DNA of 64,000 nt from a virus, in the IMG/VR virus record IMGVR_UViG_3300049491_000716, positions 1 through 64,000 of that record. One strand, 5' to 3'. The position numbers and the translations under genes are program-made. The notes beneath the pieces are model-generated. The model did no database searches and had not been told where the DNA came from. It saw nothing but the letters and a program-made list of their open reading frames with translations. Position 1 is the first letter of the stretch. Each line of letters starts with the position of its first letter. Of the stretch, positions 14,220 to 20,391 are shown one piece after another.

Positions 14220-14302
14220 GCCTAACGGTTGAGCTAACCGGCGATTTGCGGAGGCGGGGTTTGGGCTAGGCTTTTATAGCCAAAACCCCGCCCATGTAGG
14301 CA
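14220..14302 (-). other. attC half site (L'/R' present, R''/L'' arm deleted)
   Basis: Minus strand GGTTAGC-TCAACC-GTTAGGC with internal hairpin GGCGGGGTTT..AAACCCCGCC. Confidence 0.7.
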
Positions 14303-14313
14303 ACTGGAGGACG

Positions 14314-14646
14314 ATGATGACAGACGGAAAGCTACTTGAAGCCGCCGCAAAGGCTGCGGGGTTTGCCTACCGGTGGGAGCCGGGACTGCCATTTCCTCAG
14401 ATTGAAGAGCTGGAAGATGGTCGGCTTGAATGGAACTTCTGGCATCCGCTAACGGACGACGGCGATGCGTTGCGGCTGGCGACACAACTGCGCATTGACA
14501 TTTGTTTCGAGAAAACGCATTCGGTCAGTGCCTATACAGAGGATGATGAGTGGTTTCACGAACACTGCGACCAAGGGAAGCCCGAGCAGATTTTGGCCAA
14601 GACGCGTAGGGCGATTGTTTGCGCAGCCGCTTCTATGTCGGCATGA
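14314..14646 (+). CDS. Conserved phage hypothetical protein between attC sites
   Basis: GGAGG RBS; LLEAAAKAAG, WHPLTDDGDALRLA, TRRAIVCAAA. Confidence 0.85.
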   Translation: MMTDGKLLEAAAKAAGFAYRWEPGLPFPQIEELEDGRLEWNFWHPLTDDGDALRLATQLRIDICFEKTHSVSAYTEDDEWFHEHCDQGKPEQILAKTRRAIVCAAASMSA

Positions 14647-14659
14647 GGGTATTGGTGCT

Positions 14660-14759
14660 GCCTAACGTCGAAGCTCAGGCGCCCGACACGGCGCCTGGGT
14701 TGACGAAGTAGGCAAGGTGCGGCCCGCCGTGGCGGGTCGCTTGGAGCGACCAGTTAGAG
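14660..14759 (-). other. Complete attC site (100 bp)
   Basis: CTCTAAC-TGGTC-GCT(C)CAAG ... CCTGAGC-TTCGAC-GTTAGGC with paired interior. Confidence 0.9.
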
Positions 14760-15445
14760 CGCTGATGGATCAGGAGCAACCGATGCAGGACGACCGACAG
14801 GGCGAGCAGGCACACCGACTTGCGAGGCGATGCGGCGTGCCTGGTGCACTGACAGCCCGAATTTGCGCGCAGCTTCGGCCGCAGTGCCGTGGCCAGCGGC
14901 GAGCCACTTGGCTACGCGCTCGGCCGCCGCGGATGGGCGCCCGCTCATTCGGCGCGCTCGAAGTCGTGACGAATCACGGCGCGGCCGTTGTCGACCCAGC
15001 AGTACAAGCCGCCGATCGCTTCGGCGTCGGCCTCACACTGTTCGCGGTGCCCGGACGAGACGAACTCGCCAGCCTGCGTGAACACGGCGGCGTCGGCCGG
15101 GAGTGCGTCTTTAGGAAGTTGCAGGCTCAGCATGGCGGCTCCGAATCAGCGAGCGTTGGCGGCGTCGAACTTGGCTTGCTTCCAGGGCGATCTGGCGCGG
15201 GCAGCGGCTTCGCGGGCTGGACGGTCGGCTTGGATGATTGTGTCGAGCTCGCGGCCGATCTGACCGTGAGTGAACTTGACATAGGCGGCGTTTGCAGCAT
15301 CGACAGCAGCCTTGAGCGGCTTCAGTTGTTCGTAGCGAGCCTTCGAGTTCAGGCCGGCAGCGGCGAGGCGGTCACGCTCGGCGTCATGGGCAGCAGCGGC
15401 GGTGTCGAGGACTTGCTTCAGCGCGGCGATCTTGGTGGTGTTCAT
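14754..15445 (-). CDS. Three small genes (15146-15445, 14945-15133, HTH-like 14754-14948)
   Basis: Coupled; last stop TAA lies in the attC R'' box. Confidence 0.7.
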
Positions 15446-15542
15446 GGTGCTGGTCCGGTTGCGTTGTTCGATGAATGAATAATAGAGCATCATGCACCAT
15501 TACGCAAGGGCTAGTTTTGCTAGGACAAACCCGGAGCGCAAC

Positions 15543-16161
15543 ATGAACACTTACTCAATCACCGAAATCATTGCTGCGGCCAAAGCGGCCAACAACGGCC
15601 GCCTTCTGGCTTTTGCAATGACCGAGCCCCAAAAGCGCGCCGCAGAAAAGGCTGTCGCACGCGGCCTGATGACCGCGTACCACATGAAATTCCCCGGCTT
15701 CGGTTTCGTTGCAGCCTACGCAGTGGCCTAAACCATGAACAACGCGCACTCAATTACAACGATCAAAGACTTGCGCGATGCGCCGTGGCTTGACCCGCGA
15801 TGCGCCGATGCTGGGGCCTGCCAATCGCTTCGGTATATGGAAGCGCCGCCAATGTTGACAAATGAACAAGTGCTGCGAATCCTAGATTCCGTGCGCGAGC
15901 AATTTGCAAAAGACGGGCCGCCGAATGAAAGCGGAGCGCTGCTGTTTGCGCGTGCAATCGAACGAGCGCACGGCATCAAAAATGAACGTCGCTAAGACGC
16001 CAGCCCAGCGCCAGGCCGAGCGCAAGGCCCGCGAGCTTGCATCAGGCCGCGTGCAATGGAAGCTCTGGGTTCACCCTGATGATGTGCCAGAGCTGGCGGA
16101 ATACGCCGACAAGATGGCGCGGCGCAGGGAACGTGCCGCGAAGGCAAGTCCGGTTGAATGA
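15543..16161 (+). CDS. Three small genes (15543-15731, 15735-15995, 15982-16161)
   Basis: GGAG RBS; FARAIERAHGI and KTPAQRQAERKAR phage-type motifs. Confidence 0.65.
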
Positions 16162-16171
16162 AATGTTGTGC
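16141..16171 (-). other. attC half site (R''/L'' present)
   Basis: Minus strand GCACAAC-ATTTC-ATT(C)AACC-GGAC. Confidence 0.7.
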
Positions 16172-16260
16172 ATCACACGCGCTGACGCGGCACAATAGAC
16201 GAAGCCCGAATCATGGCAAGTGCAACGGGCTTCTGATCAACAACATCGGGAGTCGAAGAA

Positions 16261-18531
16261 GTGACTAAAAGCATTGTAGGCGGGTACGAGTCATTCATTC
16301 AAGACAAAGCGCTGGCGCAGATTGCGACGGGCTTTGATCCGCAACGACTCGGCCCCCACCTGTTCGATTTCCAGGCGGCCATCGTCGAGTGGGCTTGCAA
16401 GCGAGGCCGCGCTGCGATCTTCGCTGACACCGGCCTGGGCAAGACGGCGATGCAAGCCGAATGGGCCAGACAAGTAGCGGCCCATACTGGTGGCCGCGTG
16501 CTGATCCTGGCCCCTTTGTGCGTGGCACAGCAGACTGTCGAAGAAGAGGCGCGATTCGGCACTGCGATCAAGTATTGCCGCAAAGAGGCACAGACAGAAG
16601 GCGAGATCATCATCACGAATTACGAGATGGCGGACCACTTTGACGTAGCCGACTATGCCGGCGTGGTGCTGGATGAGTCTTCGATCCTGAAGAGCCACGA
16701 CAGCAAGACGCGGGCGCGCATCATAAGCATGTTCGACAAGACGCCGTACCGGTTGAGTTGCACCGCGACCCCAAGCCCGAACGATCACATGGAGCTTGGC
16801 AACCAGGCCGAGTTCCTGGGCGTGATGACGGCCGTTGAAACGCTGGCGATGTTCTTTGTTCACGACGGCGGAGACACCGCAAGCTGGCGCCTGAAAGGCC
16901 ACGGCAAGCAGCGCTTTTGGGAGTGGATGAGGACATGGGCTGTGTGCGTGCGCAACCCGTCGGACCTTGGCTTTGATGGATCGCGCTACATCCTGCCGGG
17001 CCTGCAAATGCACGAGCACACAATCGATGTGCAAGAGCCGCTGCCGGGGCAGTTGTTTGCTGGCATTGCGCAGACGCTGACCGAGCGCCGCGACGCAAAG
17101 CGGCAGTCGTTGGGCGAACGTGTTTGCATTGCCGCCGATCTGGTCAACAGCCACACGCGGCCAGCCATTGTGTGGTGCCACCTGAACGACGAAAGCAAGG
17201 CGTTGGCGCAGGCCATCCCCGATGCCATCGAAGTCACCGGTTCCATGACGGCCGACGAGAAAGAGGCCGCAATCATGGCCTTCACGCATGGCGAGAAGCG
17301 AGTGATCGTCACAAAGCCAAGTATCGCTGGATTCGGCATGAATTGGCAGCACTGCGCCGATATGGTTTTTGCTGGTCTTGATGACTCGTTCGAGAGCTTT
17401 TACCAGGCGGTGCGGCGCTGCTATCGCTTCGGCCAGAAAGACGTGGTGAACGTGCATCTGGTGTCGTCAAGTGCCGAGGGCGCAGTGAAGGAAAACCTGC
17501 AGCGCAAGCAAGCCCAGGCTACTGACATGGCCGAGAGCATGGTGGCGTACATGCGAGAACTCACGAAACAAACGATCAAGGGTGCGACGATGGAAAAGAG
17601 CGACTACGTGCGAGAAGTAGCCGAGGGCAAGGGCTGGACGATTCACCTTGGCGATTGCGTCGAAGTGGCAAGCGAACTGCCTGACAACAGCATCGACTTC
17701 TCAGTGTTCAGCCCGCCGTTTGCCAGCCTATACACCTACAGCAACAGCGATCGCGACATGGGTAACTGCAAGAGCTACAGCGAGTTTTACGATCACTTCC
17801 GGTTCCTCGTTGCGCAACTGTACCGCGTCACCAAGCCTGGCCGGCTGCTGAGCTTCCATTGCATGAATCTGCAAACCAGCAAGTTCCGCGACGGCGTGAT
17901 CGGCCTGCACGACTTCCGTGGCGAACTCACGCGCATGTTTGTCGCGGCCGGCTGGGTCTTCCATTCCGAGGTTTGCATCTGGAAAGACCCCGTGACCGCG
18001 ATGCAGCGCACCAAGGCCCTGGGCCTACTGCACAAGACCATCCGCAAGGATTCGAGCATGAGCCGGCAGGGCATCCCTGATTATCTGGTGACGATGCGCA
18101 AGCCTGGCGAGAATGCCGAGCGCATCAGCCACACTCACGAGAATTTCCCTGTCGAAAAGTGGCAGCGTTACGCCAGCCCGGTCTGGATGGACGTGAACCC
18201 GACTCGCACGCTTCAATTTCGCAACGCCCGCGAGACTGACGATGAGCGCCACATCTGCCCGCTCCAGCTTGACGTGATCGAGCGAGCTATGGAGTTGTGG
18301 AGCAACCCGGGCGACTTGGTTTTTAGCCCGTTTACGGGCATCGGCAGCGAGGGCTATGTGAGCATCGAAATGGGCCGGCGCTTTGTTGGCGCGGAACTCA
18401 AGCGGAGCTACTTCGACTTGGCAAAACGCAATCTGACTGATGCCCGCAAGACTCAGGTCGAAGGGCTGTTCGCTGACGATTACGAGGATGCATTTGCAGA
18501 AGATGGCGAGCCACAGGCGGCGGAACTGTGA
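16261..18531 (+). CDS. SF2/SNF2-like helicase fused to beta-class N4-C/N6-A DNA methyltransferase
   Basis: DTGLGKT, LDESS, TATP, QAVRRCYRFGQ; SPPF, HICPLQ, FTGIGSEG. Confidence 0.92.
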   Translation: MTKSIVGGYESFIQDKALAQIATGFDPQRLGPHLFDFQAAIVEWACKRGRAAIFADTGLGKTAMQAEWARQVAAHTGGRVLILAPLCVAQQTVEEEARFGTAIKYCRKEAQTEGEIIITNYEMADHFDVADYAGVVLDESSILKSHDSKTRARIISMFDKTPYRLSCTATPSPNDHMELGNQAEFLGVMTAVETLAMFFVHDGGDTASWRLKGHGKQRFWEWMRTWAVCVRNPSDLGFDGSRYILPGLQMHEHTIDVQEPLPGQLFAGIAQTLTERRDAKRQSLGERVCIAADLVNSHTRPAIVWCHLNDESKALAQAIPDAIEVTGSMTADEKEAAIMAFTHGEKRVIVTKPSIAGFGMNWQHCADMVFAGLDDSFESFYQAVRRCYRFGQKDVVNVHLVSSSAEGAVKENLQRKQAQATDMAESMVAYMRELTKQTIKGATMEKSDYVREVAEGKGWTIHLGDCVEVASELPDNSIDFSVFSPPFASLYTYSNSDRDMGNCKSYSEFYDHFRFLVAQLYRVTKPGRLLSFHCMNLQTSKFRDGVIGLHDFRGELTRMFVAAGWVFHSEVCIWKDPVTAMQRTKALGLLHKTIRKDSSMSRQGIPDYLVTMRKPGENAERISHTHENFPVEKWQRYASPVWMDVNPTRTLQFRNARETDDERHICPLQLDVIERAMELWSNPGDLVFSPFTGIGSEGYVSIEMGRRFVGAELKRSYFDLAKRNLTDARKTQVEGLFADDYEDAFAEDGEPQAAEL

Positions 18532-18532
18532 T

Positions 18533-18590
18533 GCACAACGTTTGAATTCACCTGCCGCCGGAGGCGGTCAGGTGGAATGAAGGGTTATGC
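18533..18590 (-). other. Complete short attC site (58 bp)
   Basis: GCATAAC-CCTTC-ATT(C)CACC-TG(A)CCGCC-TCC-GGCGGCA-GGTGAAT-TCAAAC-GTTGTGC; extrahelical G and T on the bottom strand. Confidence 0.95.
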
Positions 18591-18620
18591 GTCTGATTCA
18601 ACAACGAAGGAATTTGAAGC

Positions 18621-18875
18621 ATGAGACAAAGCCTGTTGGTAGCCGCGCTTGAATATGAGGAAGGCGGACAAACTCTGTGGTTTCATGCGCCTGATGGAAC
18701 GACGCTGCTGCGCCTAAAAGTCGATGGAGCTATCACGACACAAACATGCGAGACAAGCCCTGTCGCGCATGCCGATGGATGGGTGAAGGGGAACTTGGTT
18801 TTTTGCGTTCCGGAGAACAAGACGCATAACGTCGGCGATGAGCGGACCGCGAAGGCGCCGCCTACCGACGAGTGA
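18621..18875 (+). CDS. Cassette-borne hypothetical protein
   Basis: AAGGA RBS; bounded by 11-bp inverted repeat 18584-18594/18820-18830. Confidence 0.75.
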   Translation: MRQSLLVAALEYEEGGQTLWFHAPDGTTLLRLKVDGAITTQTCETSPVAHADGWVKGNLVFCVPENKTHNVGDERTAKAPPTDE

Positions 18876-18925
18876 AGAAGCAATGCGGCCCGCCGGAGCG
18901 GGTCCGCTCGATCAACCTGTTCGGC
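18824..18925 (-). other. Complete attC site (102 bp)
   Basis: GCCGAAC-AGGTT-GAT(C)GAGC ... GCTCATC-GCCGAC-GTTATGC. Confidence 0.9.
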
Positions 18926-19332
18926 TAGAAGGTGCAAAGCGATGGGAGCTTGCACGTCTTCAATGACTCCGCAACGAGCCAATACGTGAAGGTGTCGGGC
19001 TCGGTCGTGGTTTCTGCTGCGGATGGAGGTGGCCCGGACATGGCAACCTGACTACGCCACCAAGATGGACCGCGATACCTTGCAGCACGCAGAGGACTTC
19101 GCGGACTGCAAGACGCCCAACGTGTTCTAGGCAACTCGTTAGATTGCAACCAGACCCAAGAGATGTGAGGATGTGGCGCGCGTATCGCGATGGCGAGCCA
19201 TGGATCGTTGACGGCCGGCCGATGCGCGGCGGTCTTGAGATGATGTGGCGTGCGATCCAAGCCGAGATCGCAAAGCCACTTGGTCGTCGACACTGGAACT
19301 GATAACTTTCAACCAACAGATAGGAGCACCCT

Positions 19333-20391
19333 ATGAGCAACGAACTCGAAGTCACCAAGCAAGCCATCGTCGAACAAGACACCAGTGCGGCGGGCCTGAT
19401 GTTCACGCCTGGCGCCATGCAGCAACTGGTCGCCGTTGCCGACTTCATGGCCAAGGGTCGCGCCACCGTGCCGAAGCATCTGCAGGGCAACCAAGGCGAT
19501 TGCTTGGCTGTCGTGATGCAGGCCACCACGTGGCGCATGAACCCGTTCGCCGTGGCTCAGAAGACGCACCTCGTCAACGGCGTTCTCGGATACGAGGCTC
19601 AACTCGTGAACGCTGTCGTCAACACCATGGCGCCGACCAAGGACCGCATCAACTACGAGTGGTTCGGCGAGTGGACCCGCGTGATGGGCAAGTTCGAGGA
19701 ACGCGAGTCAAAGAAGAAGGTCGACGAAGACACCGGCAAGCCACTGAAGTACCGCGTGCCGAATTGGAACATCAAGGACGAAGACGGTCTCGGCATCCGT
19801 GTGTGGGCCACCATGAAGGGCGAGGCCGAGCCGCGCGTTCTTGAGTTGCTGCTCGTGCAGTGCCGTGTCCGCAACTCGCCGCTGTGGGCCGACGATCCGC
19901 GCCAGCAGATTGCCTATCTTGCCGTCAAGCGCTGGACCCGCCTGCACTGCCCCGACGTGCTGCTCGGCGTATACACGCCGGATGAACTCGACGACGCGCC
20001 GGTTCCGAAGGACATGGGCGCCGCCGATGTGGTCGGAAAGCCTGTGGATCCGAAGAATCCTCCGGGCCTGAGCGATGCCGAGCTTGCGGCATGGCGCCGG
20101 GAAGCCACTAAGGGGCTGGCAGCCGCCGAGGCGCACTGGAAGGCCATGGGTCGCGAGTTGCGCATGAAGGCCACCATGGACCAGCAGGTTGAGATGCGCA
20201 GGCTTGCCGAGGAAGCCGACAAGAAACGCACGGTGGACAACGGTGCCGCCGAGACCAAGACGGCGCAGCCCGCCACCAATGCCCCGGCTGCTACCGTGGC
20301 CGCCAAGGCCGACCCAGCAACCGGTGAAGTTGATCCCGACTTCGTGGCCGCCATGGATCGCGCCGAGCAGGCGGCTGGCGCGAAGGCCTGA
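19333..20391 (+). CDS. recT: RecT-family ssDNA annealing protein
   Basis: VPKHLQGNQGDCLAVVMQA..W.MNPFAVAQKTH..LGYEAQLV; LGVYTPDEL. Confidence 0.9.
   Translation: MSNELEVTKQAIVEQDTSAAGLMFTPGAMQQLVAVADFMAKGRATVPKHLQGNQGDCLAVVMQATTWRMNPFAVAQKTHLVNGVLGYEAQLVNAVVNTMAPTKDRINYEWFGEWTRVMGKFEERESKKKVDEDTGKPLKYRVPNWNIKDEDGLGIRVWATMKGEAEPRVLELLLVQCRVRNSPLWADDPRQQIAYLAVKRWTRLHCPDVLLGVYTPDELDDAPVPKDMGAADVVGKPVDPKNPPGLSDAELAAWRREATKGLAAAEAHWKAMGRELRMKATMDQQVEMRRLAEEADKKRTVDNGAAETKTAQPATNAPAATVAAKADPATGEVDPDFVAAMDRAEQAAGAKA

Follow-up and report, generated by a model that had tools for sequence, protein, structure and literature searches.

The first 64,000 nucleotides of the IMG/VR virus record IMGVR_UViG_3300049491_000716 (80,304 bp; CheckV completeness, 68%), hereafter called the window, carry a series of integron attC sites in the genome of a phage. 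The phage is uncultured and siphovirus-like and comes from freshwater sediment, and the record contains genes for a portal protein, a tape-measure protein, tail proteins, a replication protein, a RecT-like annealing protein, and an exonuclease. The attC sites are located in the early region, with the replication genes (~11 to 13 kb) on one side and the RecT (19333 to 20391) and exonuclease genes on the other. Three complete sites, S1, S2, and S3, are accompanied by two single-arm sites, and the genes in this region include a phrog_5086 gene, a cassette of three genes (m1, m2, and m3), three small open reading frames (ORFs), a helicase-methylase fusion gene, and an orphan ORF (Table 1).

The three complete sites are matched by R1, a covariance model of 19 base pairs derived from an alignment (A1) of 42 real attC sites, 57 to 81 nt in length, which are found on the cassette side of integron integrase (intI) genes matching TIGR02249 in 14 bacterial genomes. 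For this purpose, 20 loci of ~20 kb around intI genes were taken from the bacterial order containing Methylophilaceae, to which a Methylophilaceae metagenome-assembled genome belongs. TIGR02249 integrases are present in 126 of 301 sampled genomes of this order, a count that takes in the unpublished genomes G297 and G029, no sequence of either of which was used. When R1 was run on the window with its filters off, S1, S2, and S3 were all matched over their full length on the plus strand, and the next best match in the window reached only 12.8 bits (E value, 0.47), leaving the three sites at least 35 bits above anything else there. The original prediction had placed three complete sites with full attC grammar at these positions and had expected at least three matches to an attC covariance model; exactly three were obtained with R1. 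On ten held-out intI loci, R1 produced 53 matches with scores from 23 to 67 bits, all of them on the cassette side and 52 on the intI strand, and the scores of S1 to S3 fall inside this range. No match at an E value of ≤0.01 was found on the control sides of the held-out loci or in 80 RecT-phage loci (1.29 Mb), and none was found in the last 17 kb of the phage genome. Since the calibration of R1 was shortened and its E values are rough, the argument rests on the bit scores in comparison with these controls. R1 is specific, and the three sites in the window are real attC sites.

The attC grammar by itself separates sites less sharply. A grammar scan of the real intI loci gave 119 matches on the cassette side versus 42 on the far (control) side, and the same scan of the 80-kb phage genome gave 24 loose matches, the three sites among them, so that grammar alone is not decisive. 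A plain scan for AAC...GTT palindromes, in which the sites were not clearly set apart from the background, was replaced by the grammar scan and the covariance model. The poor separation in that naive scan and the location of the sites in intergenic gaps would be in keeping with ordinary hairpins between genes (terminators or regulatory stems, for instance) that have only a chance resemblance to attC. This reading is effectively refuted by the R1 scores and controls, as a model made from real attC sites alone sets the three sites so far above the rest of the window. In addition, none of S1 to S3 is listed as intrinsic-terminator-like, none matches a family in Rfam, and the complementary cassette ends and the cassette common to an outside array, both described below, also speak against chance hairpins.

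On the plus strand, each of the three sites consists of a 7-nt box (xxxxAAC), a spacer of 6 nt, and a 7-nt inner box, followed after the interior by an 8-nt inner box with an extra G at position 5, a spacer of 5 nt, and a 7-nt box (GTTxxxx). S1 reads GCCTAAC-GTCGAA-GCTCAGG...CTTG(G)AGC-GACCA-GTTAGAG, and S3 reads GCATAAC-GTCGGC-GATGAGC...GCTC(G)ATC-AACCT-GTTCGGC. The outer boxes, with their invariant AAC and GTT, are present in all three (S1, GCCTAAC...GTTAGAG; S2, GCACAAC...GTTATGC; S3, GCATAAC...GTTCGGC), and some of their R and Y positions are off the RYYYAAC/GTTRRRY consensus, likewise in real sites. The boxes of S2 are nearly identical to those of the real sites L169:7686 and L159:12771, with S2 reading GCACAAC GTTTGA ATTCACC ... 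GGTGGAAT GAAGG GTTATGC and L169 reading GCATAAC GTTTGA ATTCACC ... GGTGGAAT GATGG GTTGGGC. The two long sites share a sequence, as had been noticed originally, namely, the 12-mer TGCGGCCCGCCG at 14718 in S1 and at 18884 in S3. The attC fold of S2 is its minimum-energy fold, at -14.8 kcal/mol (z = -4.95). Judged from these sequences and their predicted structures, the sites are of the same type as the attC sites beside intI in the Methylophilaceae-containing order.

The orientation of the sites follows from the real arrays. In the held-out arrays, the longest cassette ORF lies on the strand opposite the modeled strand in 34 of 42 real cassettes (81%). Because the modeled strand is the intI strand and the cassette ORFs lie opposite to it, the modeled strand is the bottom strand; the phage plus strand is therefore the attC bottom strand, and the top strand, which gives the conventional cassette sense, is the minus strand. 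The minus-strand polarity originally assigned to the sites is thus confirmed, with the cassette-side grammar matches of the real loci also lying on the intI strand in 96 cases versus 23 on the opposite strand. The attC crossover occurs between G and TT (G/TT) on the top strand (Qi et al. 2023, Front Microbiol 14:1091391, PMC9892861), which corresponds to AA/C on the plus strand and gives the predicted crossovers listed in Table 1. The bottom strand carries the helicase-methylase and phrog_5086 genes, so that the hairpin precedes the gene, the reverse of the usual arrangement. The claim that the enclosed phage genes are mostly inverted holds for these two genes, which depart from the 81% norm, but "most" was an overstatement, as the three minus-strand genes at 14754 to 15445 form a canonical cassette.

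The R'' box of an integron cassette is expected to be complementary to the first bases of the same cassette, which sit in the neighboring site. In real arrays, this complementarity is perfect in 34 of 42 neighboring pairs, with the pairing extended by 0 to 6 bp. The R'' box of the single-arm site at 16148 to 16171 is exactly complementary to that at the 5' end of S2 (4/4 positions plus 5 bp, counted from 16165), and S2 and S3 are complementary at 4/4 positions plus 4 bp; when AAC and GTT are taken as given, matches of this extent have chance probabilities of about 4^-9 and 4^-8, respectively. Inverted repeats of 12 bp around the helicase-methylase gene and of 11 bp at the ends of the mini-cassette between S2 and S3 can be read directly (Table 1). 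Complementarity of this kind between neighboring sites is as expected of cassettes that were once circular. A distance of 233 nt separates S2 from S3, and one of 3.8 kb separates S1 from S2; the default clustering distance of IntegronFinder is 4 kb. Qi et al. used a clustering distance of 3 kb (PMC9892861), under which S1 would stand apart from the S2/S3 pair. With at least two attC sites close together and no integron integrase gene nearby in a record that is 68% complete, the array has the makeup of a cluster of attC sites lacking an integron integrase (CALIN).

Table 1. Features of the attC array region of the phage genome (window positions)
Feature	Position	Strand	Description
Half attC, bottom-strand 5' arm only	14220..14243	+	R' GCCTAAC, spacer GGTTGA, L' GCTAACC, then GGC; L''-R'' arm missing
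GC-rich hairpin, 16 bp	14253..14292	.	Inverted repeat I16, 94% complementary; fold z = -3.9; no T-run after it; outside attC grammar
phrog_5086 gene, 110 aa	14314..14646	+	PHROG match, E 1.9e-20, full length; between the 14220 half site and S1
attC S1	14660..14759	+ (bottom strand)	100 nt; R1 47.8 bits, E 1e-9; predicted crossover between 14665 and 14666
Three-gene cassette, canonical sense	14666..15541	-	m1 15445-15146, m2 15133-14945, m3 14948-14754; conserved putative promoter region; S1 is the cognate attC
Three small ORFs	15543-15731, 15735-15995, 15982-16161	+	From the ORF list; no attC at left edge; last ORF runs into the half site at 16148
Half attC, bottom-strand 3' arm only	16148..16171	+	GTCC, L'' GGTT(G)AAT, spacer GAAAT, R'' GTTGTGC
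12-bp inverted repeat around helicase-methylase gene	16165-16176, 18528-18539	+	GTTGTGCATCAC and GTGATGCACAAC; read from sequence
Helicase-methylase fusion gene, 756 aa	16261..18531	+	SNF2/DEAD-type helicase and N6/N4 DNA methyltransferase; PF01555, PF00271, PF00176; in cassette-like unit 16172-18538
attC S2	18533..18590	+ (bottom strand)	58 nt; R1 62.7 bits, E 2e-13; predicted crossover between 18538 and 18539
Mini-cassette, 291 bp	18539..18829	-	Between the S2 and S3 crossovers
11-bp inverted repeat at mini-cassette ends	18584-18594, 18820-18830		GTTATGCGTCT and AGACGCATAAC; from sequence
Orphan ORF, 84 aa	18621..18875	+	Crosses the S3 crossover, stop inside S3; codon-position GC pattern looks coding
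attC S3	18824..18925	+ (bottom strand)	102 nt; R1 48.9 bits, E 6e-10; predicted crossover between 18829 and 18830
Putative collapsed attC	19115..19144	+	GCCCAAC, 16 nt, GTTAGAT; R1 10.2 bits, E 2.1; not in arm-HMM lists

The three-gene cassette ending in S1 is also present in attC arrays outside this phage. The whole cassette is found at 77% nucleotide identity between two attC sites on a metagenome contig of 1,370 nt (L271), and on a 16-kb metagenome contig (L270, JACCDR012111305.1) it is found at 82 to 84% identity within an array of at least 13 attC sites (13 at an E value of <1e-5). S1 is a longer version of the attC site that follows the same genes on L270 and L271, where it is 58 nt in length, and the arms are homologous. 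The m1 and m3 genes are 80 to 89% identical to the L270 and L271 copies, and the middle gene (14945 to 15133) is unrelated, a gene having been swapped inside the cassette. m1 has 76 homologs, and m3 shows a helix-turn-helix match (HTH_28, 23.6 bits, under the Pfam cutoff of 25; E value, 5.5e-5). Hardly any differences are seen between the window, L270, and L271 in the region 5' of m1 (15446 to 15535, TTGCGTAATGGTGCATGATGCTCTATTATTCA), and the cassette appears to carry its own promoter there. An IS1595-family transposase gene (L270:7120 to 8061) lies just past the last attC site of the L270 array. Among the small ORFs that follow the cassette in the window, the one at 15982 to 16161 has a counterpart in another L270 cassette, which resembles 15990 to 16121 at 70% nucleotide identity; its only match in NCBIfam is UrfF, at 20.3 bits, far below the cutoff of 100, and none of the small ORFs has a match in PADLOC.

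The helicase-methylase gene matches the PADLOC models for type II and orphan methyltransferases and has relatives in more than 597 viral contigs. From these, a set of 80 related-phage contigs (807 kb) carrying the gene was drawn, and in this set homology to the window does not reach past the gene on either side. Its stop codon is in most cases overlapped by the following gene, and none of these relatives has an S2-type hairpin downstream, so that the cassette-like ends are special to the helicase-methylase gene of this phage. Searches for related loci in viral contigs with the 110-aa phrog_5086 protein and the 84-aa orphan protein found nothing, and the 84-aa ORF has no homolog but itself among 5.8 billion proteins. 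Elsewhere in the window, ARAGORN predicts a tRNA with anticodon UUA, a possible ochre suppressor, on the minus strand at 2154 to 2239.

The single-arm sites were examined with hidden Markov models (HMMs) of the 5' arm (R'-L') and the 3' arm (L''-R''), which were cut from A1 and applied to the complete 80-kb genome. The 5' arm model has its four highest-scoring matches in the genome at S1, 14220 to 14243, S2, and S3, with 14220 to 14243 ranking second best at 15.6 bits (E value, 0.0018); the full R1 model gives this site 12.6 bits (E value, 0.53). The half site originally described at 14220 to 14302 is thus retained as a single arm at 14220 to 14243 in the same orientation as the complete sites, and the remainder of that interval is a separate GC-rich hairpin at 14253 to 14292. 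The three best matches to the 3' arm model are S2, 16148 to 16170, and S3, with 16148 to 16170 second best in the genome at 11.1 bits (E value, 0.055). Accordingly, the other half site, first placed at 16141 to 16171, stands as a single 3' arm (16148 to 16171) that also shares the orientation. A collapsed remnant of an attC site proposed at 19115 to 19144 is left unconfirmed, as its R1 score is at noise level and it appears in neither arm HMM list. Its box at 19115 complements the 3' box of S3 at 3/4 variable positions, and the sole hint in its favor is a contig from the source sample that tracks the phage to 19124 and then continues into sequence resembling a full attC arm.

The read-level data consist of the assembled contigs of one freshwater-sediment metagenome run, the only public run in which this stretch is present and probably the source sample. 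A 100-nt contig of this run corresponds exactly to 19024 to 19123, ends inside the putative R' box (19115 to 19121), and has a depth of 117 versus 24 to 28 for the phage, which indicates a piece common to other genomes in the sample. Other contigs of the run enter the 5' arms of the 14220 half site (at 14235) and of S2 (at 18545) and then diverge into other attC-like sequence, e.g., GCTGAGCGGAC... and CATGAGCC... The contigs of the run break at 18006 and around 19053 to 19095, and these breaks, like the high depth at 19024 to 19123, are what might be seen if phage DNA had been joined by misassembly to a bacterial integron array via repeated attC sequence. A misassembly of this kind is very improbable, as a 13.2-kb contig spans ~4.8 to 18.0 kb without a mismatch and links the replication genes to both half sites, to S1, and to most of the helicase gene, and the contig depths are even over the three source-run pieces (27.2, 28.4, and 24.4). 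Moreover, the genes between the sites belong to phage families, and other phage contigs are arranged alike.

Arrays of the same kind recur among related phages. In the 80 helicase-methylase contigs, R1 finds 14 attC sites in 8 contigs, with 13 of the 14 on the helicase-methylase strand. L051 carries four consecutive sites with perfect neighbor complementarity and, between two of them, a phrog_13613 gene on the bottom strand; the R' box ACCTAAC of the attC site that follows supplies, with its TAA, the stop codon of this gene (L051:3245 to 3247). When 16 phage-borne sites were aligned to the model, a fitting to R1 that favors pairing, the inner helix (the L box and adjoining stem) was 94% paired, and compensating changes were seen at 11 of its 12 pairs; pairing is poor in the variable part of the R box, as is to be anticipated where half of the box derives from the neighboring cassette. 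Two of the related contigs, L031 and L034, are 96% identical rightward of the 5' box of an attC site (xxATAAC) and unrelated leftward of it, a breakpoint that is consistent with exchange at the crossover. The original expectation that breakpoints in related phages would fall at the crossover was therefore seen in this pair, which diverges exactly at the attC box, and no close relative was found for the comparison at S1 to S3. In L003 (6863 to 6965 and 7312 to 7424), L031 (3151 to 3225), and L034 (3013 to 3087), the attC loops hold an AGGAG-like motif followed by an ATG on the bottom strand, and the translation start of the downstream gene may thus lie inside its own attC site. The closest relatives anchored on RecT are at most 69% identical, have no attC sites, and served as a negative control. 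A megablast search of the 12- to 22-kb region against 50,697 phage records gave no match.

No match to TIGR02249 or to the tyrosine recombinase domain PF00589 was found in the whole 80,304-bp record (68% complete), which extends to the entire record the original observation that the window lacks a tyrosine recombinase. The intI gene, attI site, and Pc promoter of a complete integron are accordingly not all in place, as no intI was found in the record, and attI, for which no general model exists, was not searched for. With about one-third of the genome not recovered, a recombinase encoded by the phage itself might lie in the missing part and make the system self-contained. We consider this improbable in view of the 80 kb without a tyrosine recombinase and of sites that are of the type found beside bacterial intI. 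In addition, G307, the record behind contig L001, is rated 100% complete and carries two attC sites with no TIGR02249 match, so the absence of the integrase in this group is not just a matter of missing sequence.

On this evidence, 14220 to 18925 is a genuine integron cassette array without an integrase, i.e., a CALIN, and we think it likely that it would be recombined by a host integron integrase (IntI), as the original prediction had proposed. Exchange of cassettes is plausible on sequence grounds, because one cassette is common to an outside attC array and because L031 and L034 diverge at an attC box. In a host that produces an integron integrase, the bottom strand of the phage would fold during infection, and IntI would recombine attC with attC at AA/C. 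The segments 18539 to 18829, 14666 to 18538, or 14666 to 18829 could then be deleted as circles, and foreign cassettes could be inserted at any of S1 to S3. By such recombination, the early accessory genes would be swappable, and phage genes could enter the cassette pool.

Several points weigh against host-driven recombination of this array as we describe it. R1 is a surrogate and not IntegronFinder's own model, and its E values are rough owing to the shortened calibration. The attC folds of S1 and S3 lie 4.2 and 5.2 kcal/mol, respectively, above the minimum-energy fold, and nothing complementary to the 3' box of S1 is present downstream, the arm in question being missing from the next site. 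No close relative showing cassette gain or loss at S1 to S3 was found among the phage records and the helicase and RecT relatives searched, and an attempt to name the host by comparing the portal protein with genome contigs returned distant matches only, at ≤33% identity. Neither joints from deletion at the crossovers nor circles were seen in the assembled contigs of the one run, which says nothing on their absence; the only joints found there, at 18035/18238 and 18279/18367, fall within the helicase gene and are probably derived from other organisms. IntI crossovers cannot make half sites, so that other recombination must have cut both of them, and ordinary illegitimate recombination is thus also eroding the array. 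At the left end of the three-gene cassette, the phage has GTT followed directly by GCGCTCC, with 10 nt fewer than L271 (GTT AGGGCGCAGC GCGCTCC) and without an adjoining attC arm. Compared with L271, this left junction is altered and not the canonical G/TT, which points to some rearrangements that were not made by IntI.

The two sites reduced to single arms, the noise-level remnant at 19115, the shortened left junction, the suboptimal folds of S1 and S3, and the lack of excision variants in the source-run contigs could all be explained by an array that is real but inert, in which a piece of a bacterial cassette array, or a few cassettes, entered by past IntI activity or illegitimate recombination and is now hitchhiking and decaying, no longer contributing to gene exchange by the phage. 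We regard an inert array as possible, if on balance doubtful. Three sites retain a high-scoring structure over their full length and show compensating changes, arrays of this kind occur in 8 of the 80 related contigs, an attC box is exactly where two near-identical phages differ, and phage-family genes, not bacterial cargo alone, lie between the sites. These observations argue against an inert array.

The novelty of such an array was overstated at first, as phage CALINs, N6_N4 methylase cassettes, and the use of phage attC sites by IntI1 have been published (PMC9892861). Qi et al. found 17 CALINs in 10,705 NCBI phage genomes, with intervals of several ORFs, divergent site directions, and five methyltransferase cassettes, including N6_N4_Mtase, and IntI1 recombined five of the six phage attC sites that they tested (PMC9892861). 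The array described here resembles these CALINs in having at least two attC sites without an integrase, multigene intervals, and an N6_N4 methyltransferase gene, and in both cases a host IntI has been proposed. It differs in belonging to an uncultured freshwater-sediment phage that is known from sequence alone and lies outside the 10,705 genomes, and in having its methylase fused to a helicase, reversed, and enclosed in a unit with cassette ends. Arrays are also present in ~10% of the related contigs, compared with ~0.2% of the phages in the survey of Qi et al. The sedentary chromosomal integrons of the Methylophilaceae-containing order (L158 to L188) have the same grammar, boxes, G and T bulges, site lengths of 57 to 146 nt, and neighbor complementarity, and one cassette of the phage is found in the large attC array L270. 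In contrast to them, the phage has no intI, attI, or Pc promoter found, only three intact sites, and phage-family genes on the bottom strand, whereas 34 of 42 real cassettes have their longest ORF on the top strand. Bacterial CALINs (Cury et al. 2016, IntegronFinder, bioRxiv 10.1101/030866/PMC4889954) are likewise partly degraded attC clusters with no integrase nearby, whereas the phage array is in a virus genome, with phage genes for replication and recombination to either side of it.

The basic phenomenon, clusters of attC sites in phages that can be used by IntI, has thus been known since 2023, and the present array is a well-documented further example and involves no new principle. What it adds is a phage-family gene with the ends of a once-circular cassette, a cassette common to an outside array, recurrence in ~10% of related contigs, a consistent reversed sense, and, in a pair of relatives, a breakpoint that falls at an attC box. 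Qi et al. 2023 do not comment on a reversed sense of the phage genes, and it may reflect the way in which single-stranded phage DNA arises. By inference only, the strand that is single-stranded most often might be the sense strand of the early genes, which would favor folding of the bottom strand; the exposure could take place in transcription bubbles or while this strand serves as lagging-strand template for a rightward fork from the replication region.

The origin of integron cassettes and the way in which they travel between bacteria are still unsettled. In this phage, a widespread phage helicase-methylase gene bracketed by once-circular cassette ends stands beside a three-gene cassette of bacterial type, and the array therefore gives material for asking whether genes pass from phages into the integron pool and from this pool into phages. 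A further-reaching proposal, which we put forward very tentatively and consider unlikely at present, is that a phage lineage, probably infecting betaproteobacteria, keeps its early accessory genes, the widespread helicase-methylase gene among them, as sense-reversed cassettes that are shuffled by host integrases. In such cassettes, the attC site would precede the gene, and in some relatives the attC loop would appear to contain the ribosome-binding site and start codon. If this lineage does rely on host integrases in that way, phages would be a birthplace of new cassettes and not merely their carriers.

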